Origin: Sphyrna mokarran
Taxonomy: Eukaryota
Length of the DNA: 64,000 bases
Assembly: GCA_024679065.1 (NCBI GenBank)
Contig: JAGIQG010000004.1
Location: forward strand, 62,372,001 to 62,436,000
Direction: 5' to 3'
Numbering within the stretch: position 1 is the first letter of the stretch; every line of letters begins with the position of its first letter. A program made the position numbers and the translations under genes. Below are positions 8,741-62,800 of this stretch, piece by piece. The notes beneath the pieces were generated by a model, which was not told the origin of the DNA, searched no databases, and saw only the letters and a program-made list of their open reading frames with translations.

Positions 8741-9707
8741 GCTCAGTGCCACTCATTTTTTAACAATTAAGCTAATCCCAATTGCCTACATTTAATTCAT
8801 ATCCCTCTATACCAATCTTACCTAAGTAACTGTCTAAAAGCTTTTCAAAAGATATAATTGGGTCCACCACTACTCCTGCCTCTGCCATCTTGTGCCAGAC
8901 ACTCTCAATCCACTGTGTGAAAAAATTGGATCCTTTTGTATCTTTCCCCTCTCACCTGTGCTCTCAAATTTTAGACTCCCCTGTCATTAGGAAAATATAT
9001 TTATGATCTGTCTGATCTATTCCTCTCATTATTTTATAGATCTCTCTAAGATCACCCATATGTCTCCTATCCTCCACGGAAAAAGTACCAGGTTTTCTAG
9101 GTTCTCCTTATAACTCAAATCATCAAGTCCTGGTAGCATCTGAGTAAATCTTTTCTTCACTCTTTCTAGTTTAATATCATCCCTTCTATCAGAGAGTGAC
9201 CAGAATCTACACAAACGTGGCCTATCCAATGTCTTGTACAACTTCAACAAGATGTCCCAACTCCTGTATTCAATATTCCGACCAATAAAACTAAGCATGC
9301 TGAATGCCTTTTTCTAACCACTTTGTCCACTTGCGACTCCAGTTTCAAGGAGCTATGAAGCTGTACACTTAGACCTTTCTTCTATAACTCATCTCAATGC
9401 CTTACCATTAACTGAAAAACCCTGGTTCGATCGACCAAAATGCATTACCTTGCATTTATCTAAATTAAACACCATTCATCAGACCACTGACCCAATTGAT
9501 CAAAATCCAGTTGCAATCCTAGATAACCTTTTTCACTGTCCACTATGCCACTAACCTTGGTGTCATTTTCAAACTTACGAATAAAGCTTCCTAAATTCCC
9601 ATCCAAATCATTAACATAAATGACAAATAACATGGACCTAACACTGATCCCTGAGGCACACTGCTGGCACTGGCCTCCAGTTTGAAAAACAACCTTCTGC
9701 AACTATC

Positions 9708-18890: not shown

Positions 18891-18896
18891 TTTATT
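18891..18896 (-). terminator. Candidate polyadenylation signal AATAAA of the IgSF gene
   Basis: First canonical AATAAA I found on the minus strand downstream of the stop codon (about 1.1 kb); motif only. Confidence 0.3.
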
Positions 18897-19354
18897 GCAG
18901 AACAGTTTTCTTGGAAGGAAAGGCCCATAGTGCCATAGGAAGCAGCTTTTAATTTTTATGATGAAGTTCTCGAGATTGATATTGATATATTTTTGATATT
19001 AAAATTGCGGGATTCCGGGATGGTGCGAAAGGTTGAGGTTGATGTAAATATAATCACATATGGTTTGAAAGTTCTGATTTTGAGCGTGAGAACGATTGAG
19101 TGAGATTTTTACCTTTTAAAAATGAATAACCAGGATAGGCACGGGTAAAATATTTACAGTTCTGCGTGGCGCTAGAACACGAAATCTAAGATAGTGGCTG
19201 AATCAAAATGACCTCACCAGACACCGAATGTTAATACGCATTTCACTACTAAGGAAGAGTTGACGCCGCTAGGCTGTACGCTTGAACGTGGAAAATGTTA
19301 TAATGCATGTGAGAGGATTAAATGGAAGGAAATGCCGGTGTGCTTGGCTTGCAA

Positions 19355-19809
19355 TCCGATTGGTGGTCGTTCATATATAACACTGTCATCAGCAAAAACC
19401 TGTTGAGATGAGTACCCTGTTTCTGCGTTGTAAATATTATTCCAAGTAAATAGTCATACCGTCTCCCATCAGAAAAGGCCAGGGATCCAGGTTACTTTTC
19501 TTCCCATTTGGAGCCTCTAATAATTTACACATCGATTGATATGTTTTTTGCGGAAATCCAACATTGCAAGAATTCGCAATCGGATGGGTGGACGTTCGTA
19601 TGCAACACTGTCATAGGCAAAAAGCTGTTGAGATGAATGCCCCGTTTCTGCGTTGTAAATACTACAACATATCTGATCCAACTAAATAGTCATACCGTCT
19701 CCCATCAGAAAAGGCCACGGGTCCCAGTCACCTTTCATCCCACTTGAAGCCTCTAATATACACATCGATTGATATGTTTTTGCGGAAATCCAACATTGCA
19801 CGAATTCGC
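19355..19809. repeat. Diverged tandem duplication (two units of ~225 bp) in the presumptive 3'UTR
   Basis: Shared strings aacactgtcat, ctgttgagatga, gtttctgcgttgtaaata, taaatagtcataccgtctcccatcagaaaaggcca and gcggaaatccaacattgca occur twice in the same order. Confidence 0.9.
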
Positions 19810-19975: not shown

Positions 19976-20125
19976 TCATGCGATCCAGGATTTTTCTCCT
20001 GGGTTGTTTCTTTTGATTTCAGCGTATTCCACTTTCTCTTCCTTCTGATTCATTACTGATGTTTTATCGGAAACGATGAGATCCAAAGACGTATACGCTA
20101 ATGTACCATTGGTGGGTTGCTTGGC
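19976..20125 (-). CDS. Exon 7: terminal coding exon with two ITIMs
   Basis: Acceptor ttgttgctccgacag|; AKQPTNGTLAYTSLDLIVSDKTSVMNQKEEKVEYAEIKRNNPGEKSWIA* contains LAYTSL and VEYAEI. Confidence 0.87.
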   Translation of the reverse strand, partial: AKQPTNGTLAYTSLDLIVSDKTSVMNQKEEKVEYAEIKRNNPGEKSWIA

Positions 20126-23100
20126 CTGTCGGAGCAACAATGACATTTCAGTTGGGTTTTTCGCTCAAATTATATCTTTCAGGCTGCCAATGTGTTAGAA
20201 GTGGTTGAAATTAACTTTTATTCTCAATCTTACCAGGACATAAACGGTGGAACCTTCATCCCTTATTTCCCTCCTTCCTGTTTCGGTTAGCTCTCTGTGG
20301 TTGAGGGCAGCGCAATTCGGATTCCCCGCCTCTCCTGCGCGCATGGTCTGATAAGAGTTTGAGTGAAACATTAACGTTACATCAAATCACAGAAACGACT
20401 TTGAGGACAATGCCAGCAACAACAAAAAAAGTTGATTAGAATTCCTGAAAATCAGATCTGTTAATGAGATCGTGTAATCACTCACAAATACAACGGAGAA
20501 AACTGGCGTTATTTATTTGAAAATTTATTCACAGTCCATGTTAACATAACTCATGCTGGTCGAGTGGGACTTGTGCATGAGCTACGCAGCATCGAACATA
20601 TTTTCTAGCTATGGAGTTGATTATTTCAGATTTCTCCCCCCCCCTCCCCCACCCGCCACACAACTTCCCCAACGGGACCACAGGAGCAGGTAAGGCCCGG
20701 TACAGCGGTCAGCGAACAGGTCCAATCAACGTACGCAGGACACTCAGAGATTCATGGTGCGGCTATTGAGTGATAATAGAATCATAGAATCTGTACTGTG
20801 TAGAAGGAAGCCATTCGACCCATCGAGTCTGCACCTACAACAATCCCACCAAGGCCGAATCCCCGTAAACTCACATATTTACTGGTAATTCCCCCTGACA
20901 TGACGGGGCAATTTAGCTTGGCCAATCAACCTAACCCGCAGATTTTTGGATTCTGGCGTAAACCGGAGCACCAGGAGGAAACCTACACGAACACGGGAAG
21001 AATGTGCAAACTCCCGACAGTCACCTGAGACCGCAGTTGAACCCGGGTGCCTGGCACTATGTCATTTTCAGGCAGACGAATAACCATCTAACTGATATTG
21101 ACAAAATGCAAGCATCTGCTGTCTGCAAGCGTTAGAGAATCTCTGGACTTATATATCATTGCTGTGACAATGGGACACTGACTCCACGTTCACATTGGTG
21201 GCGGGAACTCCTGGAATTATGAACTCAACATGTTTTACGCACCACCCCCCCCTCGCCCCCGCACCCCATCCCGCGCTCGCCTTCAGTATTTGTGACATCC
21301 TGAGCTTATCAATAAATATATCAGTGATGTAAGTGATTTTCACATTGAAGTAGCAACCTACTTCCCATCACTGAAACTGACCTGCTTCTTGGACTTGTCG
21401 GTTATTTCCTCAGCAGCCTTCCTGTCTATTAGGAAAAAGCAATACATCAATGATCAACTTCATCACTTGAAATTTTTCACCAATGTTTACTCAACGTTGG
21501 AGCAAAGTGACCAGGCGCATCAGCAGTGAAAATGTAACAACCATGTTACATATAATGCATGTGGCTGAGACGGGATCCACGCTACAACAGAACACAATGC
21601 CAGTTACAAGCAAACCAAGGTAATGCAGATTCTGAAATTGTGAAGTAAAAGCAGAAATTGCGGAAAATACTCAACAGGTTAGACATTGGTTACCTTTCCG
21701 GGTCAGTGTTCTGACACAAAGGCATGGACCCAAAACATTTATCTCCACAGATTCTGAGATTTGAGCATCTGAAACACTTTCTGATTTTATGTATTTCTTT
21801 TACATTTGGATTCCAGATTCACAGCGTCCACCCTATTGTCGCTACCCGTACAAGCACAGTCACATGCTAGTGACGGTTAAGCGACAGAATTCACAACGCC
21901 GAGAACAAACATCCAGTTTGTTTAATGTTCATAGTTCGTGACATTCTGACATTTAGGATCCTGTTCTCGTCTCAGCACTGCGCCCTCGAACAACAAAACT
22001 TCTGTCAAAATCTAGATTCAAGTCTGCACCATTTCAGCTACATTTGCCGCACGATTACGCTGCTTTGGGACATTAGAACACAATTGTGAATCAGAACGCC
22101 TTACCATCAGATCCATCTAAGTCGCAGCGTTTGAAGAGAATCCGCAGTATCGCTGTCATCATTAGAATTATTAACACACCCGCAACAGATCCAGACACCT
22201 TGAGATAGAGAATCTTCCGGTCTTCTTTATCTAGTGAAGACAAAGTTTAATGATACGATTTTAAGGAGCAAATGATGCTAAACATATGAGCAACGTTAAT
22301 TTTCAAGCCGTGCCGACATATCAAAATTTTCATCTCATGTCTGGGTGTTCCACTTTGATTTTACTGTGAGGCCTCAGAACAATAGTATTAAACTACCAGA
22401 GTACAATATAGATTAAAACACGTTATACATTTGTGATAACATCAGGCCTTTCTTAATTGTATGTAATGTTTCAAGCAATAATTATACAGCTTTCTGCATG
22501 ATGTATCATTATGACATCTGCCAAATTCTATTCTACCAAATCTCCCAAACAGACAAATCCTGTACTAATTAGACAAGATGCATTATTTGAAAATTTATTA
22601 AATAATTTAAGCAACGAGTTATAGTGGATGAAATTGACTATTAATTGCATCACTCTTCCTCTTGATATATCCGTATAAAATCTCTGTTTGTTTGTATGCC
22701 TCATGCAAGTTTTTGCTCAAGGTTAATCTTCCTCCTTCTTAGGAACTTTACAGTCTTTTGTTGTTGATCCTTAAATGATCCCAGTCCTCTAGTTTACCAC
22801 TACCCTTTGGCACGTTGTACATCCTTATTTTCAATTGAACGTTATCATTGACTTCTTTGTTAACTATGGATTTTTCCTCTTTCTCGTGCAATTCCTCTTT
22901 CTGTTTGGGATAAACATCTGCTAATCATTTTGGACTAGCTGTTTGAATATCTGCTCATCTAGTGACCTGTATCATAACTTGTTTACCCAGTTTATCTTAC
23001 AGTTCCTCCCTCATCCCTTTTTAATTGCCCTTACTAAAGTTGAAAACACCTGGAATTCTATCGTATTGTGGTCACTATTCCCCTCAAGGTTCCCTATTAA

Positions 23101-26100
23101 TCTGACTTCATTACTCAAAACTAATTTGTTATTTTCCAGCTGAAATATTCCTCCAAAATATGGACATGGCACTTTAGGAAGGATGTCAATGTCTCAGAGG
23201 GAGAGGAGTGGGGTGTGGAGCAGAGAAGATATTCACTTGGATTTTGCAAGATCACGAAGATTCTTTAAGCAGGGAGACTGGAGAAGTTTGGGCTCTTTTT
23301 CAGAGTTTAAAAAAGTTTAGAATAATCTGATGGTATTGTTCATAGCATTGACTTGTTTAATATAACAAATGCAAGAAATATGACAATAAAGTTACGTAAA
23401 GATACTGATTTTGGGGAATTTGGTCAAAATCAGAGGCAACATGGAGGAAGCCAATGCACAAAGCATGTTGATGTCAGTTGGAATACATTGCCTGAAAACA
23501 AAAGGAGTATTCCAACAGTTCAATTTAGAAGAGAGTTGTATAAAATTTGAAGGGAGAATATTTCTAGAGTTATGGGGGCACTGGTGAGATGAATTAATTA
23601 GATAGCTCTACGAAAGAGCATGCAAATTATAAGGGGTATAGAGTAAACAGGGTTAAGCTTTTTCCTAGGATGGACTCAAATAGCACGAGAGCTCAGGGGC
23701 TTAGGGTGAGGGGGGTGAGGTATAATGTGGATGCTAGAGGGAATTTTTTTCACACAGAGGGTGGTGGGGGTATGGAACGCGCTGCCAAGTAAAGTGGTGG
23801 AGGCAGGCATCTGGAGTTATTTAAGAGATACTTAGATGGGCACATGAACAGAATGGGAATGGAGGGATATAGAAAACTGATTTAAAATAGGGATCATGAG
23901 CCTTGGGAGCTCCCTGGGAAGTGTGTAAATTGTCGAAGATATTATTGCATTTGTTTTATCCTACAGGTATTTTGGTCCGCTGTGTTGTTTAACAAGAGGC
24001 ATACACGCGATAGGTCGTGAGGGGCTACTCTTGGATTTTTTGAAAGTATCCTAGTGCTTCATGTCGTTAGGGTACACTTGACCTGGACCATTTGATGAGC
24101 AACACAATAGCTCAGTGACTATCGCTGTGCTGTGTAGATACATGGATTTGAGCCTGCATCTGTGAGAGTTTGCGCATTCTCCCCATGCTTGCGTGGGTTT
24201 TCTCCGGGTGCTCCGGTTTCCTCCCACACCCCCAAATATGTGCTCTTAGGCTGTTTGGCAAAACAATTTCTCCCTAAATTGTCTCAAAATTGATTCTAAT
24301 GCATAGATCTATAAACATAGTCAGGGATCATTGGTAGGAGTGGAAACATCGAGGTGGCGGCATGGGCTCGTTGGGCCGAAGGACCTGTTTTCCGTGCTGC
24401 TTTGTTCTTTATTCTTTGCAGTGTTATGATAAACTGAACTCCCTACTTGTGTGCAGTACGATTGCAAATAGAACTGTTCAGTCCATGAAATTGATTGTTT
24501 ATTTTTAAAATTTGCAGTGAATGTGCATTCACTACATTAACTTTCACGTTATTCTGAAGGTGAGTGACATTGTGGTAGAGCAAATTCGCTTTGCAGTTTC
24601 AGTAGTGCTGAGTTATCAGACAGGTATCTTTGCAGCTCCCTTTTTCAAGTGTATGCAGTTGGAATTTTCTGTTCATCTCCACATGGTGAGTCAATTTATA
24701 ATCAAATTAAGTTTCATGATGTTTATTATTTATAAAGCACAAATTACGATAATAATGTTAATAACTAACATCGATTAATCTATTGGCTATCCACTGAAGA
24801 TGTCTCAAGTCCGTTTCCTCACATCACATAACTTCACTGATATTGTGGATGAGAGCTTTATAAGGACAGGGCAGTTGGAAAATGTTTTGATTGATTTATT
24901 CCTCAAATGGATCCGAATGTGAATTTTGTGTTTTTGGTAAGAGCCTCACAAAGTTATAGTGACCCTTTAGAATCTGTACACAATAACATATTTCATTCAT
25001 TAATTAACATGATATTTGCATTGCCAACTAAGTCAGCAGTATTGTCTATTTCAATTAGCTTGAGAGGTGAATTGCACTATTGAACCCCCGACGCCCATGT
25101 GGTTTAGGTGCACCCACAGTACTGTTAAGGGAGAGTTGTGGAATTTTAACCTGAAAACAATCAGGTAATGGTGACATATTTCCAAATCAGCATGGTGAAT
25201 GATTTAGAGGCGATATTGCAGGGAGTGCTATTCTCCATGGTTTGCTGCCTTTGTCTGGATGGGTGATAGCAGTCTTGTGTTTAAAAGGTGCTATCTCAGG
25301 AGGCTTGCTGAGCTGCTTCAATCATTTTTGCTGCTGACAATGTTCGTCAAGAGGCTGTGGTTCTATTCTTTACTGTTGGAGATGGCCACAGCCTGACACT
25401 TGTGTCATGTGAAGGTTGTTTGTCTTTTGCCCGCCCAGGCCTGGATATTGTTTAGGTCTTGTTGCTTTTGGATATGAAGTGCTTCAGCATCTGAGGATTT
25501 ATGAATGTTGCTAGACACTGTGCTGTCATCAATGATGTTCCCATTTCTGATCTTAAGATGGAAAGAAGAGGACCCGTGAAATAACTGAAGAAACCTGGTC
25601 CAGGACAGCACTCTGAGGAACTCCTGCAGTGATATGCAGGAATGGATAACCATCATCCTTTGTGCCAAATATGATTCAACCCAGCAGAGGGATTCCCCTT
25701 TGTCCCATTGATACAGATTTTGCTAGGCTGTTTGATGACATAATCCATCATATACTGATTTGATGTCGGGGATGTAACTCTTTTGCACCTCTATTATTTC
25801 TGCTACTTTGGTAGAAATAATAGAAGGAAGGATTATTATTTAAAAGGCGAAAAGCTGCAGCATACTACAGTACAGAGGAACTTGAAGGCCTTTGTGCCCG
25901 AATCGCAAAAACTCAGTCTGCGAGTGCAGGCAGGTGATCAAGAAGGCGAATGGAATGTTGGCCTTTATAACGAGGGGGATAGAATGTAAAAGCAAGGAGG
26001 TTTTGCTGCAACTGTACAGGACAGTGGTGAGGCTGCAACTGGAGTACTGCGTGCAGTTTTGGTCGCCACATTTGTGAAAGGATACATTGGCCTTGGAGGG

Positions 26101-29100
26101 ATGCAGACAGGGTTCACTAGGCTGATACCGAAGATGAGGAGGTTAGTTTATGAGGCGAGAATGGATAGACTGGGTCTGTACTTGTTGGAGTTTAGAAGGA
26201 TGAGGAGAGATTTTACAGAAACAATAAGGTAATGAAGGGTCTAAATAGGCTAGAGGTAGAGAGGTTCTTCCTGCTTAGAAAGGATAGCAGAACTAGAGGG
26301 CACAGCCTCAAAGTAAGGGGAAGGAGAGCAGTTTCGATCGGAGTTGAGGAGGAACTTCTTCACTCAAAGGGTGATGAGTCTCTGAAATTCTCTGCCCACT
26401 AAAGTGGTGGAGGCTACCTCGCTGAATATATGTAAGATACGGGTAGATAGGTTTCTGATAGACAAGGGAATCAAGGATTATGAGGAGAAAACGGGAAAGT
26501 GAAACTGATCCACTTCTGTTCAGCCATGATCTTGTTGCATGTGGCAGGCTCGAGGGGAGAGATGGCCTACTCCTGGTCCCATTTCTTAAGTTCTTATGTT
26601 CTAGAGTTAACTCTTTTAGTCACGAATGAACCAAAGCTGAAATGAGATCAAGAAGTGAATGGTCCCTGTGGAATTCAATCTGAGCATCATTGAGCATGTT
26701 TATTGCTAAGCAGGTGCTGCTTGATAGCGCTGTTGCAGATTCTTGCATCACTCCATCAATTTCCTGATGATCCGGGGCAGATTCACGGGTTAGTCATTAA
26801 TCCAGTTGGATGCATCCCGTTTCTGGTACACAGGACATATTGATCGGTATTTGCCAGTGTTGTAGTTGCATGGAAACAGCTTGATCAGGTGCACTGCATG
26901 TTCTGGAGCACAAGTCTTCAATATTATTGCTGGGATATTGTCAGAGTTCAAAAACTTTACAGTGTCCAATGCCTTCTGCCGTTTTTTGGTATAAAGTGGA
27001 GTAAATTGAATTGATTGAAGACTGACGTTTGTGGTGCTGGGGAGCCAAGATGATTCATTTGGTGTGCAACTTTGCAGAAAATTATCGTGACTGTTTAGGC
27101 CTTTCATGTTATACTCTTGTGCTGGTATTCTCTATCGTTGATGACAGAGATATGTATGGAGCCTCCTGCTCCAATCAACCATCTAATTCCTCCTGCAACA
27201 TGGACAAGCATTCTCTGTGTAGAAATTGAAGTTACGTACTCCATATGAATCATCCATCATCCTGGTATCAAAGAAAAGCCAGAAAAGCCTGAATGACTAT
27301 CGTCTGGTGGCTCTAACATCCATCATTAAGAATGCTTTGAAAGGCCCCCTAGATTGCTTTGATCCACTGCAGTTCATCTATTATTGCAACAGATCCACAG
27401 CAGATGCCATCTCCCTGTCCCTACAGTAAACCCTGGAACAACTAGGTATCAAAGAAATCTACGTCAGACTCCTATTCATTGACTACAGTTCAATCTTCAT
27501 TCATTATTCCTACAATACCCAATTCCCAATTCCGTGGTCCGGTACTCAGCTCCTCCCTCTGTGACCTGATCCTCAACTTCCTCACACACAGATAACAAGC
27601 ATTAAGGATAGGTGACAACACTTGCTCCATGATCATTCTCAAAACTGATGTCCCAGAAGGCTGTGTCCCCAGCCCCCTAATGCACTCGTTATACATCTGT
27701 AACTGTGTGGTTAAATTCCACTCCAACTCAATTTTCAACTTTGCTGATGACAAATCAGCATAGTGGTGGGTCTTAATTCAAACAATGATGTGTCAATGTG
27801 CAAGAAAGAGATAGACAATATGGTGAGCCGGTGCGACAGTAATAACCTCTCCCTCAATGCCGACAACACGATAGAGATAATCATCGATTTCAGGAAGCAT
27901 AGTAGAGGACATGCCCCTTCCAAAATCAATGGGAATGAAGTGTAAGTGGTGGGGAGCTTCACGAGTTTAGGTGTTTAGGTCACCAACAACTTGTCCTGGT
28001 TCCTCCATGCAGACCCAATAGTTTAGAAAGACCACCAATGCCTCTACTTTCTCAGGAATCAAGAGGAATTTTGCATATATGCAAGGACTCTCACCATTTT
28101 TTACGGATGCACCATCGAAACCGTTCTTTCTGTTTGTATCATAGCTTGGTATGGCTCCAGCTTTGTCCAAGACTGCAGAAAAAAAAACTATGAAATGTCG
28201 TAAATGAAGGTCAGTACATCACACAAACCAACGTCCCATCCATCGACTCTGTCTAACTTTCCCGCTGCTCGTTAAGCAATTAGCATAATCCATGATGCCA
28301 CACACTTGGGACATATTCTTTTCCACCTTCTTTCCTCGGGAAAATGTTACAAAATTGTGAAGACACTTACCAATCGACTCAAAAACAACTTCTGTTTCGG
28401 TGTCATCAAACTTTTGAATGGACCTACCTCTTATTAAGTTCATTCGTCTCTCTACCCTAACTATAATTGTAACACCACATTCTGTACATCCGATATGCTT
28501 TGACTGCATAACGCGCAAGAAACAATACTTTTCACTACATTTTAATAAATGTGAAAATAATAAATCAAATCAAGTTAAAAAGAATCATCCACTACTTTGT
28601 CCGACTTCGTGACATGTGTCCGCTCGACAATTCATTTCTGCCGTAGCAATGAGCGCTCTTCATCTAATGTCTTTAATACATTTCTGCTGTAGATTTGGCG
28701 GATAGGACGGCCCAGATCATGTCCCTAATTCCAACAAGATACAATTTACAGGAGTAATTTAGGATTCTTACCCTGATCGCGAAGTACGTAGCTGTCCTTG
28801 ACTGGCATTCTGACAGAAATATGAGAAACTTGGCAGGTATAAACGAACCCGATGTCAACAGGTTTGAGAGAGCTGGAAATCTGATACAGTCCCTCCTCGT
28901 TCTCCCATTCTGTAGTATTAACTCCAGTTCTAATTTCCGTGTCATTTTTGTGCCAAGTGAGGTTGAAATCTTTCGGGAAGAAAGCAGCAGTTTTACAGAG
29001 CAGTGCGAGGGATGGAGAGGACAGAAGCGTTATCTTCACCGATGTTGGCGGCACTGCGAATGAATTAATGGACCTGAATTAAAATTGCTATTCGTGCATT

Positions 29101-32100
29101 GCATCCAGGAGAAAGAACATAAAAGTAATACTTTCCTGGAAGAGAGAACATGTGGCAGCTGGAGTAGGAGAATCTTATTGCTGCAATAATTTGTGTTGCC
29201 TGAAGCAGTGAGCGGAAATATATTTAAATACCATCTTCAGTGAGCATGCTGAGGGGAGACCCACTCTACGCTGAAATAAACTTAAGTTCCAATTATACTG
29301 AACCGGGTAGTGAGAAGTCTCAGCTCTCTCTGAAAGTGTTTCATTATAGTTCGGACATCTAGAATCGTCACTGGTGAAATGCGCAGAATGCAAAATGAGA
29401 CATGCCAAAAAAGCAGAATGGACTCGTTATCTCAACAATTCACGGATTCAATTTCCGAGTAAAACTCTCTCTGACACCATACGAATTTATGTTTAGTATC
29501 TTACCTGTGATGAGCTTTTTGGAAATATTGTTGCTTCATCTGACCGGCAGAGTTCTCCCTGTACATCGTTTCCCTCTCTTCACTTTTCTATGGAAAAGAT
29601 GGTCAGGTTTCCGGCCACAGACCATGAGTTCTGCCGCAGTCAGTTCTTTGCCTTCTTGCATTCTTAATACATTCCCGCAATGTTAAACTGATTCACTTCG
29701 TCTCCCTGTCCTTGATGTTCTTTAATGGTAAATCTGCTAATCCATTCTTGGCTCCGATCAAACATCAACGTCTACCATCCCCTCAGTCTGTGTTTTTGCA
29801 TGACATTACATTGTTGAGCCTTTCCCAGCAGTCAAAACGCGTTCAAAGCCGTGTTCAAATCCTTGCGCTAATTATCACTTTAGTTCGCTCTTATCTTCAA
29901 GTTACAGGCCTAATGTCACTAAATAAGTAGATTTTCTATCCCATTGTTATCATTATTACGGCCCTCGAAATATAAGCATTCTCAGAACTGTGGTCTGTTG
30001 AAGGACTCATATTCATTTTCTCGCAGGATTCATTTATTCCTGACAGGGGCAAAATATCAATCTTTCTCTATTGTTCACATCGCCAGATAGGGGAGAAACT
30101 TACTTCCTCTCTCCTAGCCAGGAGATCAATTCTCATTAAAACACCCACACCTCCAGTTTCTGCATTCAAAAGTTCAAATTCCAGCGCTGGAACCTATTAA
30201 ATGAAACATGTTCAGCGCAATTCTTAGACTCAAACACAGCCAACCGAGATCATCCACGATTCTTCCTTCCCGCAGGCTGAGACACCTTGTGATTCAAGAT
30301 TCCACAATCCGCTTATTTTCTCTTCACTTTGAATAATTGATAAAATTTTTTTTGCAACATTCCAATCTTCATCAGATTGACAAGGCTCCAGATTGAAAGT
30401 AGAATTTCTGAGGCAGTTATTATTTGTATCTTCATCATGTGCAAACTTTGGAAATTCCACTCTGCTCCACCAACCCCTTTTACAATTTGAATCATTCTCA
30501 GTAAGTTACTTCCTTTCAAATGTCCACAGCCCACTACACTCCACCCTGGCATCTACTGAAACTATAAACCCCAAACTGCTACCTACTGTGCAAGGACTAT
30601 TTGACCTCTGAGTTTAAATCTCATCCACGCATTTATCCAAACAGATGACTATGGTCCCGTATCTGATCCTGCATTAACTTCTCGTCCGCCCACACAGAAA
30701 CCCATTCACTTTTGGATCTAATGAACACATTAATTTGCTCCTCCATCTGCATTTCATTGGCACTTGTCTAAATACGATTGCAAACTGTTGTAAACGAGTT
30801 TTTATTCTCCATTCGTTCATCTTCTACTTGAAACATGTCCTGCTGTCTCGCACCGGAATCTATGGGAGGTATTTCTGCTTCTTCACTTCCATCCTTTTGG
30901 AGTCTCAGACAGAATTGAAACAGGACAAATTCCCATCCAGTTTTACAAAAATCCATTTCTTAGCTGTTAAAATCTAAAAATTAATTCATCAATTGGACTA
31001 AAAATAGAACTAATCGAGACTGCTGTAAATTAAATCTATTGACTTTACATTACATCTAATTCAAACCTCCTTTTAGAGCTAGAAAATTGCATGCGCCCTC
31101 TCAACTTTAAATGAAATCTATAAAAAAACAATGCCATATATTTGTATTTAAAATAAAATGTAATCCTAAAATACAATGGGTAATAGAAGCAAATAAATGG
31201 TTCTTGGTAAGTTAACTTGCATCAGCATTACTAAAACATGTTAGCAAATCTAGTCATTACTTCATTACATTAATTATGCATAGTATCATGCAATACTAAT
31301 TACTGTTTATATTGATATCGCTCTCCCTCGGCATGTCCCGCCATCCCCTGCCGCCCTTACCCCTTTCCAATCTGTATACTTCCTGCAGCTATTTTCTGAC
31401 AGTGATGAAAATCTCTTTGTTATACTAGATTAGATTCACCCGGCAACTCATCCCTGTGTGCTGGTGCTGTCGTCAGGTCTGTGTTAAGGGGGTGAATTAA
31501 ATGTTGGCAATAGTAATATATTTGAAGACTTCAGTTCGTCTTCCTTATGTTATACATGTTTATAAACAAATTAAAACAGAAACCTTGACATGTTTAACAA
31601 CATTTTATCACTATTGAGATTACCAGAGCAGGTTCGAGACTAGACGTTCTGCAACAAATAATGAAAGTATTGGTTACATAAAGTATCCCCGCATCTGCAA
31701 AGGCAGGATTCTGCTGGAATAATCTCCATTTAGCTGGGTGAGAATAGCTGTAGAACGCGCGCCAAATTCCGAAAAAAGCATCTAACGTAAGTCAATCCAT
31801 TACTGAAACAACCATTACCTTCACTATCCTCGCACCGCAGTATGCGCTGTCTAAAAGATACATCACTCGCCAAGCAGGCGTGTGACAAAACATTTCAAGG
31901 ACGTCAGCCACATGGGACGAACAGCTTTTCATCAAGATAAATAGCATCCTGAACTGGTCATATATCACCGTTTGTTCCTTGTCACTGAATAAAAACCTGA
32001 AATTCCCAATTCAAAACATCGATTACAGCCATTGATGAAAATCATCCCTCGACCAAAGAGGAATGTAGAATATGAGTAAGAAAATAATGGTGCCTGTGTT

Positions 32101-32967
32101 AACGTGAATTAATTGAAGTAAATGACGGATAATAAAAATCCCGAGAATTAATTGAGGTAAATGACAGATAATAAACATTTCTCTGGAAATGATCTGGATT
32201 CATGTAAACTGTAGTGATTCTATGGCATTATGGGATATTGAAAAGGAGAAAAGGGAGAGAAAAAACATTGACAATCTAATTTTCACTATTGGGCAAGTGT
32301 TGCTATTCGTCGCGCGGGAACACGCAACATTCACTGCAAAAATTGTAAAGTAACAACACAAATCAGACCTGAGCGAAAGTTCCGTCGGATTGCTCAGTTA
32401 TTTTTCTGATATTCACCTGCAGAATTTTACGCCAGCCCGTTTCTCTCTCATTATCACTCACCGTGTACAATAAGCTCAGTCCCACTGCCATTGGCGATTG
32501 ATCCATGTTTAACGCTGCAATAATAGAAACCAGAGTCCTGGAAACTCACATTCAGAAGGTGCAATTCGGAAAATCCTTGACCATGAATCAGGATCATTTT
32601 GCTTTTCTCGGTAGCCAGATCCAACATCACGGCTTGGCTGCGTTTCCACCAAGAAGCAGGAATTATTGCGTTGCCATCGAAAAGCTGCATAGAGCAATTC
32701 ATGGTAATATTTGCACCTTTTATCTGAGTCGCACGTGTCGGCACCTGGACCACCGAGATAGCGGCTTCGAGCGTAGCTGTCAGAAATCAGCACCAACAGG
32801 ATTATAGACAGAGGTAATGATAACCATACTTTCAAATATAATGAAAAAAACAGTAATAAACAATATCCTATATTGCTTTCGCTATTTAATCAAACTATAA
32901 TAAAAAAAACACCTGTATAAATAATGCCCAGAGCCGAGAGGTAATGCAGTAGACGTAATGCAGACAT
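19976..32967 (-). CDS. Spliced 7-exon gene (361 aa): type I membrane IgSF receptor, leader-V-C1-TM-cytoplasmic ITIMs (SIRP/PRARP-like non-rearranging V-C1 receptor)
   Basis: Exons 32967-32913, 32776-32462, 29053-28772, 22230-22105, 21425-21382, 20347-20234 and 20125-19976. Lengths 55+315+282+126+44+114+150=1086 nt give one open frame from ATG to TGA. Every intron is GT-AG with matching phases (1,1,1,1,0,0). Orthology cannot be assigned without a search. Confidence 0.88.
20234..20347 (-). CDS. Exon 6: cytoplasmic exon with degenerate tyrosine motifs
   Basis: Acceptor aactcttatcag|, donor CCTG|gtaaga, 114 nt, phase 0-0; TMRAGEAGNPNCAALNHRELTETGRREIRDEGSTVYVL. Confidence 0.8.
20778..21060 (-). 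mobile_element. HE1/V-SINE in intron 5
   Basis: aaaccggagcaccaggaggaaacc...aatgtgcaaactcc reverse-complement V-core; tagaatcatagaatc tail. Confidence 0.85.
21382..21425 (-). CDS. Exon 5: short cytoplasmic exon (DRKAAEEITDKSKKQ)
   Basis: Acceptor gctttttcctaatag|, donor GCAG|gtcagt. The 44 nt convert phase 1 to phase 0, exactly as needed to read exons 6-7 in frame. Confidence 0.78.
21615..21795. mobile_element. Degenerate short Penelope-derived inverted-repeat element in intron 4
   Basis: aaaagcagaaattgcggaaaatactcaacagg resembles the PLE terminus at 9708-9745, with an imperfect reverse-complement arm downstream. Confidence 0.45.
22105..22230 (-). CDS. Exon 4: stalk, transmembrane and juxtamembrane segment
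   Basis: Acceptor tttgtcttcactag|, donor GATG|gtaagg, 126 nt, phase 1-1; DKEDRKILYLKVSGSVAGVLIILMMTAILRILFKRCDLDGSD. Confidence 0.85.
23622..24417 (+). mobile_element. CR1 family A 3' fragment in intron 3 (antisense to the gene), nested in an older CR1 (23150-23620)
   Basis: Highly similar to 1790-2587. Confidence 0.92.
25010..27170 (-). mobile_element. Old CR1-clade LINE fragments, interrupted at 25785-26607
   Basis: DLNNIQAWA, IPAIILKTCAPE and VYQKRDASN RT-region remnants in ORFs 25405-25668 and 26790-27107. Confidence 0.7.
25785..26607 (+). mobile_element. CR1 family D 3' fragment with apparent 10-bp TSD
   Basis: KKANGMLAFI...LEYCVQFWSP; TAACTCTTTT occurs at 25775-25784 and 26608-26617. 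Confidence 0.88.
27245..28575 (+). mobile_element. Rex1/Babar-type non-LTR retrotransposon relic
   Basis: LNDYRLVALTS, DPLQF, RSTADAIS, GCVPSP, FADD, IIDFRK motifs; (AAATC)n tail. Confidence 0.85.
28772..29053 (-). CDS. Exon 3: Ig C1-set domain
   Basis: Acceptor ttcattcgcag|, donor CAGG|gtaaga, 282 nt, phase 1-1. LLCKTAAFFPKDFNLTW...GLYQISSSL...YTCQVSH carries the C1 hallmarks (FxP, W, YxxxS, CxVxH). Confidence 0.93.
32462..32776 (-). CDS. Exon 2: Ig V-set domain with J-like G strand
   Basis: Acceptor ttctgacag|, donor CACG|gtgagt, 315 nt, phase 1-1. Translation ATLEAAISVVQVPTRATQIKGANITMNC...ASWWK...LHLLNVSFQDSGFYYCSVKHGSIANGSGTELIVH shows B-strand Cys, C-strand Trp, DSGxYYC and GxGT motifs. 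Confidence 0.93.
32913..32967 (-). CDS. Exon 1: signal peptide (MSALRLLHYLSALGIIYT)
   Basis: ATG at 32967, hydrophobic leader, 55 nt ending in phase 1 at ACAG|gtgttt; typical IgSF leader exon 136 nt upstream of the V exon. Confidence 0.85.
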
Positions 32968-33471: not shown

Positions 33472-36400
33472 TTAGAACCAAGAGGAACAAAGAACAAAAC
33501 AGCACGGGAAACAGGCCCAACGAGCCCGCGCTGCCATCCCGATGTTCCCACTTTTACGCGCGATCCCTGTCCATGTTTATAAATCTATGGATTAAAAACC
33601 AAATTTGAGACAATTTAGGGAAAATTTGTTTTGCCAAATAGCCTAAGAGCACATCTTTGGGATGTGGGAGGAAACTAGAGCTCCCGGAGAAAACCTACGC
33701 AAGCACGGGGAAAATGCGCAAACTCCCAAAGACACAGGCCCAAATCCATGTATCTGCACAGAACAGTGATAGTCACTGAGCTACCGTGTTACCCATCAAA
33801 CGATCCAGGCCAAGCAGACACTAACGACGTAAAGCACTAGAGTACTCTCAAAAAAAAATCCAAGAGCAGCCCTCTCACGACCCATCGCATGTATGCCCCT
33901 CCCTAGACAACAAGGTGGACCAAAGCACCTGTAGGATAAAAACAAGTACATCAATATCATCATCTATTTACACACTTCCCAGGGACTCCTAAGGCTCATG
34001 ATCCCTATTTTAAATCAGTTTTCTATACCCTTCCATTCCCATTCTGTTCATGTGCCCATCTAAGTATTTCTTAAATAACTCCAGAGTACCTACCTTCACC
34101 ACTTTACTTGGCAGTGCATTCCACACCACCACCACCCTCTGTGAAAAAACTCCCTCTAGCATCCAAATTATACCTTACCCCCCTTACCCTAAGCCCGTGA
34201 TCCCTCGTGCTATTCAAGTCCATCTTAGGAAAAAGCTTAACCCTGTTTACTCCATCTATATCCCTCATAATCTTGTACACCTCTATTAGATCTCCTCTAA
34301 GTCTACGTCTTTCTAAGGAAAACAGTCCCAATTTGTCTAACCTCTCCTCATAACTCAGACCTTCCATACCAGGCAGCATCCTGGCAAATCTCCTCTGCAC
34401 TCTCTCCAGAGTCTCCACATCCTTCCAGTAGTAGAGTGACCAGAACTGGACGCAGTATTCCAAATGAGGCCGAACCAACATTTTATACAACTGCAACATT
34501 AAAGGACAGCTCTTGTACTCTACACCCCTTCCTATAAAGGCTAACATACTATATGCTTTCTTCACAACCTTAGCCACTTGCTCTGCCAACTTCAGAGGCT
34601 TGTTCACATGTACCCCCAGGTCCCTCTGCATTTCTATACTCTTAATAGGTCTACCCTTTGTCATATACCTCCCCCATTCATTCTTTCTCCCAAAATGCAT
34701 CACCTCACATTTATTAGGATTAAATTCCATCTGCCATCTGTCTGCCCAAGCTACCAGCCTATCTATGTCCTGCTGCATGGCCTGACAATGCTCCTCACTA
34801 TCCGCAAGTCCAGCCATCTTTGTATCACCTGCAAACTTGCTGATCACTCCACTTACTCCCTCTTCCAAGTCATTTATATATATTACAAATAGAAGAGGTC
34901 CCAATACCGAGCCCTGCGCCACACCACTAGTGACCGACCTCCAGCTAGAGAAACACCCTTCCACTATTACTCTCTGTCTCCTATTACCAAGCCAGTTACT
35001 TGTCCATCTAGCTACTTGTCCTTGTATCCCATTACCCTTGATCTTTTCAACTAACCTCCCATGAGGGACTTTGTCAAACGCCTTACTAAAATCCATATAG
35101 ATGACATCAACAGCTCGCCCTTTGTCCACTGTTTTCGTCATGTGCTCAAAAAATTCTACCAGATTTGTAAGCACAACCTCCCCTTAACAAATCCATGCTG
35201 CGTATCCCTAATCAGATCACAATGCTCTAAGTGCCTATACATCTTATCTCTAAGAATCCCCTCCAACAGCTTCCCTACCACTGACGTCAAACTCACCGGC
35301 CTATAATTTCCAGGGTTATCCCTACTATCCTTTTTAAACAATGGTACAACATTAGCTATTCTCCAGTCCTCTGGAACCTCACCTGTGTCCAAGGAAGAGA
35401 CAAAGATTTGCGTCAGAGGCCCAGCAATTTCACCTCGCACCTCCCTAAGCAGCCTGGAATAAATGCCATCAGGCCCCAGAGATTTATCAGTTTTAATGCT
35501 ACCTAGAAGCTCTAACACTTCCTCCCTCGGTATGGATATTTCCCTCAACTGGTCCACAGCTCCCTCAGAGACGGGAGCTGTCAACAAGCCCCTCTCCTTT
35601 GTGAATACCGACGCAAAGTATTCATTCAGGATTTCCCCCATTCCCTCGGGCTCTAAGCACAGTTCCCCTCCTCCGTCCCTAAGAGGTCCGATTTTTCCTC
35701 TAACCACCCTTTTATTCCTAACATAAGAGTAAAAAGCCTTTGGATTTTCCTTAATTCTATCCGCCAAAATCATTTCATGCCCCCTTTTTGCCCTTCTAAC
35801 TCCCCATTTGAGCTCCCTCCTACTCTGTCTATATTCCTCCAATGCTGTCTCGGTTCCCAGTTGCTTTGACCTATCATACGCCTCTCTTTTCTTCCTAACC
35901 AAGTCCTCAATATCCCTAGTAATCCACAGCTCTCTAATCCTACTTTTCCCATCTTTCCTCTTGGCCGGCACGTATTTATAGAACATAGAACATAGAACAT
36001 AGAACAATACAGCACAGAACAGGCCCTTCGGCCTTCGATGTTGTGCCGACCAAAATAAAAAGCAATGCCCCTCCAAACTAAACCATTCCCTTCTCTTCCA
36101 TATACTTATCAATTAACCTCTTAAACGCCACCAACTTGGCGCATCTACAACAGCTGCAGGCAGGGCATTCCACTCCCTAATCACTCTTTGAGTAAAGAAC
36201 CTACCTCTGATATCCGTCCTATAACTCATACCCCTTAATTTAACGTTGTGTCCCCTCGTGCTAGCTTTTTCCATCCTAGGAAAAAGGCTATCACTGTCCA
36301 CCCTATCCAAACCTCTAATCATCTTATATGTTTCAATAAGATCCCCCCTTAGCCGCCTCCTTTCTAACGAAAACAACCTCAAATCCTTCAACCTCTCTTC

Positions 36401-36770
36401 ATAGGACCTGCAACATTTGCAGTATTCCCTTGAAAGAGTCCTACATGCCTAGCGCAGACTTACCCTTGAACAATCGTTCCCAATTAGTTTCCATAAGTTC
36501 CTGCCTAATCCGACCGTAGTTAGCCTTCCCCCAATTCAGCACCCTGTGCCTAGGGCAACAAGCATCCTTTTCCATATGTATCCTAAAGTAGACAGAATTG
36601 TGGTCACTGTTAGCCACATGTTCCCCTACTGCAACATCAACCACCTGCCCTAGCTCATTACTCAGAACTAAATCCAAGATAGCCCCCTCTCTAGTCGGGC
36701 TAGCCACATACTGCTTCCAGTAAACATTTTACAAATTCCTGCCCGTCCAAACCCCCAGCTCTAGGTACAC
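33472..36770 (-). mobile_element. CR1 family A (APE C-terminus to tail), interrupted by family B at 35979-36410
   Basis: ORFs 34104-35174, 35156-35978 and 36441-36707; SINE-containing 3'UTR at 33472-34010. Confidence 0.95.
35979..36410 (-). mobile_element. CR1 family B 3' fragment nested in family A
   Basis: ORF 36113-36391 and (GTTCTAT)n tail. Confidence 0.93.
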
Positions 36771-59879: not shown

Positions 59880-62800
59880 ATACGCAAACATTCACGTGAT
59901 ATCAAAAGGTTCCATACTTTATTGAAAAATAGTGAGGTATGTGAGATGTCAACTATCACAGAGAGCTCTCACCTCTGACACAAGTGTATAACTAATACAT
60001 TGATTTTGCCAATTCTCTCCTCAGCTGCGTCATATTACAACACCACTAACGCCCAGTTAACTTCAAATCTCTCGATTGCCAGCGCTTGTCAGTGATTCTC
60101 GCTGATTTTCAGAACAGAGTCATCGCCTTGGCACAGAATGTCTGTATTCCATCTGCTGGGCATTATTTAGACAAGTGTATTTTTTTTTAGCGTGGTTTGA
60201 TTAAATAGGGAAGGCAATATAATGTAAATAACATTTCTCTCCAATGTTTATCGCAGTTGACATTTCATTTCATTTTACTTGAAACATGTTCATCACTACT
60301 TTTGCCTACCTTTGATTGTGTTGATTTTTGAGAGCTACTTTCGGGGCCGTCCTCTGAATAGTTCAGATGCCCAAGATGTGTTCCAGATGAAAGGCACAAA
60401 TGTTATATGAAATGCTCTTTCCAGCTTTCTAGATCCAGTGCATTCATTTGTGTTGCTGGGCGGCCAAAAGTTGATGTTGAATCTGGCTGCAGAGAAAAAG
60501 CAAAATGCACCTGACTTACAATCAATGATTTTCCGAATTATACCTGCTCAATTTGAGTCTCTAGGTCTCTAGAGTCTATTATTGCAGCGTTAAAAAATAA
60601 TTAAACTGCAATGGCATTGGAATAAGCTTCTGGTTATTGGAGAGTGATATTGAGGGAGAAACGGACCAGCGTAAAATTCTGCACGTGAATACCAGGGAAT
60701 ATGCAACTGACCAACTTGGCAGAATTTTCATTCAGACCTGATTTGCGTTATTTTCCAATATTTGCAGTAAACGTTGTATGTTCACAGCACATTTACCGGT
60801 CTGTGAAAATTAGACTATCAGTAAACAGACATTCATTGTGAAGCATGGAATTCCAATAGCGCCGAAAGAGCCCCTACTCGTGATTTTCAAGATATGTCAT
60901 TCCTCTTAGTCAATTTTAAGAATAAAAGTCACATTCGCACAAACGCCATTTTAAAAATTCCTATTCTGCATTTTTCTTTGGTTGCCGGACTATTTTCTTT
61001 AATGGCTGTGATTGACACTTTGAAGGTGCTCCCTCATCATCCAAAATTCCACGTGCTTGATCCCCGTAGCAAGGAACAAACGGTGATATGTCATCATGTC
61101 AGAATGATGTCTCATTTGATGACAAGTTGGAGATGATGCTCACCTTATGTGGCCCTTAACATATTAACCCATGAATAACGCATATTAACGCAACCCATGA
61201 ATTTGTCAGATGATGCAGCAACCTCTTTGGCTAGTGATCTTATACATTTTTTAAAGAGCAAGCATTACAAACATGATGCACAGATCATGAGGGTGATCGC
61301 TGTTTCATTTAATAGATTGCTTTACGCCAGGTGCAGTCTTTGGGATTATAGCGGTATTTTGCAACTATTCTCATCTCAACAAATAAACAGTACCCCAGCA
61401 GAATCCAGTCTTGGAAGATGCGGGGATACGTTATCGAAGCAATAGTTGCATCATTCAATGGAGAATATCTAGCCTCGAGACTGCTCCAGTCACCTCGGCA
61501 GTAATAGAGCATAATACCAAGATATTCGCTTTAACGTATTGGTACACATGCATAAAATAAAGACGGTGAAATATAGTCGCTAAACATATTCCTGTTGGAA
61601 TCAGTTCGTTCAGTTCTTTAACAAAAACGTGAAGAGTCGTGAGTTGCACTGTTGCCCGTTCAATCGAATCTGGCTTACAACAATGAGATTGCCATTAAAC
61701 GTCAAATATATATATATAAGAATTGAATATGGAGGATAGTGTAATTTGGCAGCAGTAGATTGAAATGGATGGTGGGACAAAGTGGAAGTAATATGCAATC
61801 TATTATTTCCTGCATTTTCCTGCATAGTTAATATAATGAAAAACGAGCACACCTACTGACAACTTATTTATTGATATTTATAGAAGTTAGCTTATCAAGA
61901 ATCATCAATTTACTGCTGTTGCCCACTGCATTTGTAGGATTGAATTTAATTTCAAGTGCCAACAAATTGTTATTAGTCATTGTATTACGGTTGAGATGCA
62001 ACATGCAATGAATACTTTCTTAACACTAACAGGATGTTAGAATTGGATTTAATATAAAGGTAATGAGTTTTGTTTACAGAGATCTAGATTAGGTCCATTT
62101 TTAGATCGAATTATGAATACTGCAGATTTTCGATCTTAACAGCTGGATGGGGAATATTTCCACAAAACAGATCTCAGACTGAGACTGTGGTATCCGGATG
62201 CAGAATATCTCCTGTGTCAAATCCACTAGGATCGCATTGACGAAACTAAACTTTTCCCTATAGACATGTTTCAAGTAGGAGATGGCCGAATAGAGGAAAA
62301 TTCATTGAGGAAATTTCATAAATAAATATTACTGTCATAACAGTTTGTAAACATCTTCAGGTCACCTGCTGATGACATTCTCACGGATACAAAAATCTGT
62401 ATCTGAGTGCAGCGGAAGCAGGGTTCATGCTAGATCAGGTACGGGACCACTATCACGTGTTTGGGAGAATTCTTGTTTCAATCTAAGGCCTCGTCGATCA
62501 GATGGAAATTGGACTGGTGTCGAAAACATTTAATCAAATATTCAAAGTAAGTGAAGAGGAAAGAAGCAACCACAAAGTGTTTGCAGCCTGCGGAAAGGAA
62601 GCACTTTGAATGACCGAGGTTGGCGACTGTTAAGTCGCAGTAGTTACTCCTCTGGACAAGTTTCAGTGAATCGTTTAAAGCTCTGTCCTTTGCCGTTGCC
62701 TGGAAGCGGAACTGTTTAATGTAGGAACTGGAAAGGAGACGGGATTATTTTAAAACGAGAATTGTTCTCTTGGCGAGAGTAGCGGAACTAATAGTCTTCA

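Follow-up and report, generated by a model that had tools for sequence, protein, structure and literature searches.

An unrearranged V-C1 receptor gene with two ITIM-type motifs and its clustered family in Sphyrna mokarran

The window, a stretch of 64,000 nucleotides from Sphyrna mokarran (contig JAGIQG010000004.1, positions 62,372,001 to 62,436,000), carries on its minus strand seven exons that join into an open frame of 1086 nt encoding 361 aa. Each of its six introns is bounded by GT-AG, and the intron phases are 1, 1, 1, 1, 0 and 0. Exon 1 (32913..32967) encodes the leader (MSALRLLHYLSALGIIYT), aligns with the leaders of the orthologs and ends in a phase-1 donor. It is followed by a V-set exon (exon 2, 32462..32776; 31.3 bits, cut-off 26) with Cys46, Trp61 and Cys105 and by a C1-set exon (exon 3, 28772..29053; 42.5 bits, cut-off 21) with Cys143 and Cys197, both placed by profile match and exon model. 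The exon model assigns the stalk and the transmembrane helix, at about residues 232–250, to exon 4 (22105..22230), and together with the ortholog alignment it defines exon 5 (21382..21425) as a 44-nt juxtamembrane exon with a conserved Gln at its end. No interchain cysteine and no charged residue in the transmembrane core were seen in the encoded protein. The tail is encoded by exon 6 (20234..20347) and exon 7 (19976..20125), the latter ending in the stop codon, and the first AATAAA 3′ of the stop (18891..18896, minus strand) is a candidate polyadenylation signal, read from sequence only.

The splice junctions fall at matching alignment columns in six ortholog proteins, and the best full-length identities to shark orthologs were 48.7% over 349 residues and 48.9% over 333 residues. 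The CpG observed/expected ratio was 0.79–1.07 in six of the seven exons versus 0.42 across the window. The donors of exon 1 (GTGTTT) and exon 5 (GTCAGT) are weak and were assigned by ortholog alignment; another exon 5 donor, at 21362, gives phase 2 and misfits both exon 6 and the orthologs. The open frame and the ortholog junctions agree with an earlier note that had claimed an intact leader-V-C1-TM-ITIM gene of seven phase-consistent GT-AG exons, and the window was confirmed to hold a real seven-exon gene with predicted junctions. As that note had also stated, the gene lies amid retroelements: LINE reverse-transcriptase ORFs, together with esterase ORFs, surround it. On the plus strand, 60334..60621 holds another V exon of this family, broken by many stops and preceded by its leader; its broken C1 lies just beyond the window end.

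Motif reading of exon 7 identified two intact ITIM-type motifs, LAYTSL at 321 and VEYAEI at 344, which bears out the ITIM-bearing tail proposed earlier. The two tyrosines, Tyr323 and Tyr346, are separated by 23 residues, a spacing that suits tandem SH2 domains. In exon 6, the ortholog alignment showed that both proximal tyrosine motifs have decayed (Cys286 in place of Tyr; TVYVLA), and with two of the four ancestral tail motifs lost in this copy, any inhibition would depend on the two distal ones.

Most of the related exons in the genome lie on the contig of the window gene (C993), which holds 39 of 40 V matches (split 21, 17 and 1, nearly all in two clusters) and 40 of 46 C1 matches. Within the 975,807 bases examined, 38 V exons or genes were identified. 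Tyrosine-motif tail exons were present in 19 of the 38 genes, and the last-exon pair LxYxxL / xEYxxI-V was repeated across the family. Another six genes, picked by eye, have an Arg within the transmembrane helix and reach a stop codon shortly beyond it; the V domains of four of them are 89–97% identical to that of a tyrosine-tail gene, while the nearest inhibitory V is 51% and 57% identical for the other two. For 13 genes, tail exons were not found within the examined bases. Each family gene in this genome has one C1, and one skate model has two. Matches on C1437 and at 3.34 Mb of C668 were assigned to a multi-C1 gene and a B7-like gene, respectively, both outside this V-C1 family. According to PMC3716694, the features that make SIRPs paired receptors are clustering, shared ectodomains and opposite signalling. 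The family described here, which is clustered and has like ectodomains and two tail classes, is a paired inhibitory/activating receptor set, the activating class being predicted by sequence pattern only, and the window gene on its own is an ordinary member of this family of about 40 genes.

Relatives were found by alignment search in sharks, rays and one chimaera, under five inconsistent automatic names, consistent with the earlier assignment to a chondrichthyan receptor; a single-V search of longer proteins gave none, and multi-Ig proteins crowded the hits of the search against representatives. Among 75 database relatives, a tail tyrosine motif was present in 33 and the transmembrane Arg pattern in seven. 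The suggestion of a poorly described family held in that no description was found in the literature searched, several key papers that may describe it being outside its coverage; it had missed the paired set of about 40 genes and the members already in RefSeq under automatic names, e.g. SIRPA-like. According to excerpts of the respective sources, NITRs are said not to have been found in cartilaginous fish (bioRxiv 10.1101/2021.06.11.448072) and SIRPs are reported as tetrapod receptors of unknown origin (PMC13262535, PMC9652883).

The 3′ end of the V exon encodes NGSGTELIVH, indicating that the GxG strand is germline. GxG was present in 31 of the 38 family V exons and was preceded by F or W in none of the 31, so that the J-like GxGT strand noted earlier is indeed germline but does not have the F/W that marks a true J. 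No recombination signal sequence (RSS) was found after any of the 34 V exons scanned (of 38; control, 5/5), and none of six loose RSS-like matches in the window lies near the V 3′ end, which upholds the claim of a non-rearranging gene. An Ig light chain or TCR chain joined in the germline would share the V-C1 order, sharks possess germline-joined light chains (PMC12227049), and the AU tests, which rejected no placement on the V and C1 trees, allow the family to group with antigen receptors (p = 0.21 for V and 0.40 for C1). This identity is nevertheless extremely unlikely in view of the transmembrane segment and ITIM tail, the missing F/W, interchain cysteine and RSS, and the separate clade formed by the family (99/97 for V and 94/86 for C1). 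Across its two domains, the predicted structure of an ortholog aligned to B7-H6 and Neph-type proteins with rmsd of 2.5–4.2, and more poorly to Fab or TCR chains (8.5–12.8). Of the ectodomain once described as having the shape of one TCR or IgL chain, the domain order stood, whereas the F/W, the interchain cysteine and a charged transmembrane core are missing and the ortholog model is nearer to the B7-H6/Neph type. It is also very unlikely that the window gene is a PRARP/VJC1 gene of the MHC-linked kind, although the broad architecture of VJ-C1 plus an inhibitory tail is the same. PMC10751288 cites PRARP among the VJ genes of the MHC region, yet all 53 class I matches lie on C1548 and none on C993, and C1027 offers a better candidate in a separate germline V-C1 family whose FGxG strand is canonical. 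The MHC linkage that had been proposed for checking was thus not found, and synteny indicates another paralogon. Alternatively, the window copy could be an attenuated or decaying member with an open frame and a brake that no longer works, as suggested by the two decayed proximal motifs, the weak donors of exons 1 and 5 and three broken relatives within 95 kb. We consider this quite unlikely, since the frame is open over its full length, the distal tyrosine pair is intact, and the invariant Cys46, Trp61 and Gly117 are retained, whereas a 92%-identical neighbour has lost these residues and an intact C1. The two copies differ at 39 non-synonymous and nine synonymous sites; polarised against orthologs, 17 differences favoured the window copy, 10 the neighbour and 12 were ties, a modest signal.

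Two further readings concern the ancestry of the family. It may be the cartilaginous-fish branch of the SIRPs, as a co-ortholog or a differentially retained ohnolog, and the window gene a SIRP-alpha with two domains and CD47 as a possible ligand; we regard this as possible but doubtful. The nearest Atlas clusters of an ortholog were SIRP-alpha (score 0.96; 205 and 203 of 256 features), and in the PDB search with the full-length family profile, UrIg2 ranked second and SIRP-alpha third, the latter in one stretch over V and C1 (profile positions 24–215). The family C1 joined the SIRP-like C1 of lungfish, the only source of SIRP rows, at 87/81, and the tail resembles that of SIRP-alpha in its two tandem tyrosine pairs. 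The genome offers no better SIRP candidate (best matches to lungfish SIRP-like domains, E = 1e-5 for V and 1e-7 for C1), and the contig that carries NSFL1C is a paralog of C993. Against this, the family is unlinked to NSFL1C or syntaphilin: NSFL1C/SNPH markers, the SIRP neighbours in the human chromosome 20 region, lie on C668 and C1326, and no Ig exon was found in the 200 kb around NSFL1C. Family genes also have one C1 and SIRPs two, and Arg is the residue of the predicted activating forms, while DAP12 is what SIRP-beta uses for signalling according to PMC3716694. The V tree set the family beside NKp30-like domains and did not join it with SIRP, although joining was not rejected (p-AU 0.39); the AU tests rejected neither placement, with SIRP rows that were lungfish SIRP-like only, a lungfish-query search for tetrapod SIRPs having returned four lungfish proteins only. 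A search for CD47 was uninformative, neither this genome nor the controls giving a match. By the second reading, the family was derived by joining an NKp30-type VJ exon to a C1 exon and is nearer to NKp30/B7-H6 than to SIRP; its members may engage B7-family ligands or be ligands themselves. The family V and the NKp30-like V of the MHC contig grouped at 98/90 under LG+G4, the structure model of the ortholog matched B7-H6 among its best two-domain matches (Z 16.4, rmsd 4.2, 190 aligned), and NKp30 also couples via a transmembrane Arg. This origin is unlikely, as the mixture model lowered support to 82/25 and the quick tree gave 45, the outgroup rows owed their NKp30 label to position and tied PDB hits, and the family is off the MHC contig. 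In the fold searches, the Ig domains of many V-C proteins tied and no SIRP stood among the matches shown, which excludes nothing.

The order MT-MMP, NDRG and then Ig-domain genes is common to C993 (MMP at 52.9 Mb, NDRG at 53.97 Mb and one of the family clusters from 54.18 Mb) and a contig taken as its paralog, C994 (MMP at 0.04 Mb, NDRG at 0.31 Mb and the Ig exons of an Ig/TCR array from 0.59 Mb). The cluster thus adjoins duplicated copies of the genes bordering the Ig/TCR locus, and the family and that locus may share an ancestor. The V of C994 is presumably TCR-alpha and its NDRG presumably NDRG2, assignments made partly by elimination and not identified by the PDB searches. Maf_N and BRK matches occurred on C993, C668 and C1326, and DAD matches on C1326, C335 and C794; none was found on C994, and these matches do not support its membership in the paralogous set. 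An RHD search for NFAT-type paralogs on four contigs found none and was uninformative. We tentatively propose, as a somewhat unlikely scenario, that the family and the antigen-receptor complex are sister loci, of which the family stayed unsplit: a VJ-C1 gene beside MT-MMP and NDRG before duplication would have given rise, on three different 2R chromosomes, to the RAG-split IgH/TCR-alpha-delta complex (C994), the paired family (C993) and the SIRPs of bony vertebrates.

Whatever its ancestry, the window gene is germline and unrearranged, and its leader-V-C1-TM product, in which two ITIM-type motifs are intact, is probably an inhibitory leukocyte receptor; it is one of about 40 clustered family members and has siblings predicted to be activating. 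The receptor is predicted to work like SIRP-alpha. The protein would be expressed on the surface of leukocytes, where ligand binding may lead to phosphorylation of Tyr323 and Tyr346 and recruitment of SHP-1/SHP-2. Siblings whose transmembrane helix bears an Arg close to its outer end would couple to an adaptor of the FcR-gamma/CD3-zeta type and activate, a coupling pattern as in NKp46, LILRA and GPVI. By the usual logic of paired receptors, the inhibitory form may read a self ligand and the activating copies may counter pathogens that exploit it. A large paired innate Ig receptor family was previously undescribed for cartilaginous fish in the literature searched, a gap that this family would fill, and its occurrence in chimaera, rays and sharks provides named genes for cloning and assay. 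Through the neighbours on C993, synteny in other genomes makes a long-standing question testable: the identity of the unsplit VJ-C1 gene that RAG invaded and of the ancestral chromosome that carried it. A two-domain VJ-C1 precursor was predicted in the shark UrIg paper (PMC12227049, Fig. 2 legend); a true sister locus would supply an origin for SIRP and, beyond the MHC paralogons, a precursor lineage with two domains.

Among known systems, SIRPs share with the family a germline V with a GxG strand followed by C1, clustered paired receptors and an inhibitory tail with tandem tyrosine pairs. They differ in being V-C1-C1 rather than V-C1, the family numbering about 40 genes located away from NSFL1C and not joined with SIRP in the V tree, and in the DAP12-type coupling of their activating members, made by a transmembrane Lys, versus the Arg near the outer helix end of six family genes and seven of 75 relatives. 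NKp30 (NCR3) has in common a single-exon VJ-type V without F/W before GxG and a transmembrane Arg in activating forms, but it has no C1 and is MHC-linked, whereas the family combines C1 with ITIM tails and maps outside the MHC contig; the extended V-C1 shape of B7-H6 resembles the ortholog model. PRARP/VJC1 is likewise germline VJ-C1 with an inhibitory tail, but it has a canonical J and few copies, in contrast to a large paired set, and is reported from the MHC region. The NITRs of ray-finned fish are also a large clustered set of VJ-type receptors, but their second domain is I-set and that of the family C1-set, and NITR-like V rows fell outside the family clade in the V tree. The non-rearranging UrIg and UrIg2 of sharks share an unsplit VJ followed by C1, but UrIg2 has many C domains and is a disulfide-linked dimer encoded in an Ig/TCR complex, UrIg lies in the MHC, and the main text of PMC12227049 contains no occurrence of ITIM, whereas the window gene has an ITIM tail.

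The minus-strand gene was rebuilt from the sequence as seven exons (window 32967-32913, 32776-32462, 29053-28772, 22230-22105, 21425-21382, 20347-20234 and 20125-19976) joined by GT-AG introns of phases 1,1,1,1,0,0, and its predicted protein is 361 aa long. Exon 2 (V-set) and exon 3 (C1-set) both scored above the Pfam cut-offs, and the V exon was modeled by AlphaFold2 at pLDDT 90. The tail carries the motifs LAYTSL and VEYAEI; the gene belongs to the tyrosine-motif class and has lost both exon 6 motifs. A catshark protein (48.7% over 349 residues) and a horn shark protein (48.9% over 333 residues) matched the model, which was built without either of them. When the protein was aligned with six orthologs, two of them with incomplete tails, the exon junctions came to lie in corresponding columns. 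Reconstruction, Pfam domains and junction alignment together back the intact leader-V-C1-TM-ITIM gene claimed in the earlier note, and, as judged from sequence, this is a real gene.

Its placement amid retroelements was likewise confirmed: self-repeated DNA makes up ~47% of the window, and LINE reverse-transcriptase and esterase ORFs are present. Near-complete LINE elements (esterase ORF1 plus reverse transcriptase) lie at window 48409-52221 (plus strand), 34107-36728 (minus) and 7649-8752 (minus), and a tandem duplication of ~230 bases (83% identical, window 19351-19809) lies just 3' of the stop. The nearest paralog, 76 kb distant on the same contig and ~92% identical (C993:62464684-62481333; loci L002, L017 and L077-L079), duplicates the whole gene in broken form. 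Each of its seven exons was found at 83-98% identity; it lacks Cys46, Trp61 and Gly117, and its C1 exon is interrupted by ~3 kb.

The V exon gave 40 genome matches, 39 on C993 (21 at 54.19-55.03 Mb, 17 at 62.40-63.28 Mb and one at 50.24 Mb), and the C1 exon gave 46, 40 on C993, both counts being lower bounds. In the DNA examined for the family (~20-30 kb per gene, 975,807 bases including the window), 38 V exons were found, and an RSS was detected at none of the 34 that were scannable. Elsewhere in the genome, the same rule was positive for 5/5 V exons without a J-like strand and for 0/7 with one. A GxG strand is present in 31/38 family V exons and is never preceded by F or W, so that it is J-like and not a canonical J. 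The germline V exon proposed earlier, with a J-like GxGT strand and no RSS, thus stands in both respects, short of a canonical J.

Other Ig-type genes were also seen. A second germline V-C1 family on C1027 (~0.8-2.8 Mb) and small contigs (L130, L133, L134, L137 and L168-L175), with at least two subtypes and a short V-C intron, carries a canonical FGxG J strand within the V exon. Its V-set and C1-set domains scored above cut-off, no RSS was found at its V exons, and it is a candidate PRARP/VJC1 family. Two genes on C335 (19170329-19172073 and 19309239; L181, L235) each have a C1 exon, directly preceded in the first by a V with YEIPPP and GxG, a CD28H-type motif. Genes at C1437:97.12-97.28 Mb (L108, L109, L185) show long runs of C1-like exons, with no V in the DNA examined. 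Tandem NKp30-like V exons lie beside the MHC class I cluster at C1548:96.75 Mb (L135, L140, L184), and an Ig kappa-like array occupies 81.1-81.9 Mb of that contig.

Of 36 longer proteins recovered with the family profile, 33 come from 13 cartilaginous fish, rays and a chimaera included, and protein look-ups gave five further species. Contig data, where given, were alike for all members within a species, which points to one chromosome in each. Databases list the relatives solely by automatically assigned names, such as SIRPA-like, tapasin-related-like, Ig-lambda-like, NCR3LG1-like and MHC II beta-like, and no description was found in the literature searched. These results support the suggestion of a poorly described chondrichthyan family; earlier papers or supplements by Ohta, Flajnik, Dornburg and Yoder may list it, in which case its novelty would drop. 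None of the 20 proteins identified by look-up was recognised as a V-C1 member from a bony vertebrate; closest outside the family were turtle and lizard multi-V receptors, along with lungfish proteins of SIRP-like type. The multi-V receptors P0042, P0046, P0052, P0078, P0109, P0143 and P0156, of which the four looked up are from turtle, snake and lizard, carry GxG strands and bear titin-like or FCRL5-like automatic names; several have a tyrosine-pair tail like that of the shark family, and one has a TM Arg. The lungfish proteins (P0095, P0196-P0198) show SIRP-like V repeats and V-V-C1-C1, which would date SIRPs before tetrapods.

Tail exons with tyrosine motifs were found in 19/38 family genes, usually as LxYxxL followed ~22-24 residues on by xEYxxI/V, with one to three such exons in tandem. 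In six genes, chosen by eye, the outer end of the TM helix carries an Arg and the reading frame stops within a few residues after the helix. For four of these six, the V domain is 89-97% identical to that of a tyrosine-tail gene and falls within inhibitory clades of the V tree; the other two have no close tyrosine-tail partner. For the remaining 13/38, the ~20-30 kb examined per gene yielded no tail, so they were left without a class. Of the 75 database relatives, 33 show a tyrosine motif in the tail and seven the TM Arg pattern. Architecture, motifs, two classes and shared V domains are thus observed. Coupling of a TM Arg to an adaptor of the FcR-gamma/CD3-zeta type is a known pattern. By analogy with established receptor biology, the family probably pairs inhibitory and activating members: ligand contact with the V domain would lead to phosphorylation of Tyr323 and Tyr346, recruiting SHP-1/2 and damping activation, and the Arg-bearing siblings would signal through such an adaptor.

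What makes the finding notable is the family together with its synteny. Linkage to the MHC, raised in the earlier note, was not borne out, as 53/53 class I matches lie on C1548 and not on C993. CNOT1 (C993, 59.7 Mb) lies between the two family clusters, a NUDIX_2 gene lies 20 kb from the first cluster, and a large MAF gene and a BRK gene are on the same contig; their human counterparts map to 16q. Two gene families of four members each are spread over one set of four contigs: NDRG (C668, C993, C1326 and C994, with a further single match on C794) and MT-MMP (tail domain, 4/4 matches on C1326, C993, C668 and C994). The order MMP, NDRG, V-C1 is common to C994 (0.04, 0.31 and 0.59 Mb) and C993 (52.9, 53.97 and 54.18 Mb). 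From 0.59 to 10.9 Mb, C994 carries V segments with RSSs together with numerous C1 exons, an array consistent with the IgH/TCR-alpha-delta complex reported in PMC12227049.

This shared order would follow if the C993 family and the C994 complex were ohnologs descended from one VJ-C1 gene beside MT-MMP and NDRG, a reading we consider rather unlikely. The markers were picked in the light of human synteny, the mapping rests on one genome, searches with Maf_N, BRK and DAD found nothing on C994, and the family did not join Ig/TCR in trees. A two-exon DAD match lies at C1326 69.19 Mb, a paralogous contig, away from the Ig/TCR array, unlike human DAD1, which flanks TCR-alpha. In published models (PMC10751288), MHC paralogs gave rise to the Ig/TCR complex and translocations followed, which could have put the complex there by chance.

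In separate V and C1 trees (~105 columns; 14 chosen family rows in the smaller ones), the family formed its own clade for V (99/97; 93/60 under the mixture model) and for C1 (94/86). Outgroup labels were assigned from position and known motifs, and the trees excluded three near-duplicate outgroup domains as well as any domain that was partial or broken. The V sister was NKp30-like (98/90, down to 82/25 under the mixture model) and the C1 sister lungfish SIRP-like (87/81); AU tests on these ~105-column trees rejected none of SIRP, antigen receptors and MHC as sister. For a predicted ortholog model, the matches spanning both domains were Rst, B7-H6 and Neph1 (Z 16.0-16.5), and the C domain of the model matched MHC class II at rmsd 1.2-1.7. 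Fab and TCR chains aligned over both domains only at rmsd 8.5-12.8. The inter-domain angle of the model is uncertain (pTM 0.59). The nearest Atlas clusters of the ortholog were SIRP-alpha (0.96), and the full-length family profile ranked an IgA model, UrIg2 and SIRP-alpha at the top of the PDB. NSFL1C and syntaphilin-family genes lie on C668 and C1326, and the 200 kb surrounding NSFL1C contain no Ig exon. PRARP genes are germline VJ-C1 genes with an inhibitory tail, and the SIRP-alpha tail carries two tandem tyrosine pairs. The first reading, an inhibitory V(J)-C1 receptor, was right in kind, and the gene is best classed among the inhibitory members of a large paired V(J)-C1 family of cartilaginous fish. 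The family would work as SIRPs do, yet differs from them in three membership features: the V-C1-C1 ectodomain, NSFL1C/SNPH linkage and a DAP12-type TM Lys in activating members.
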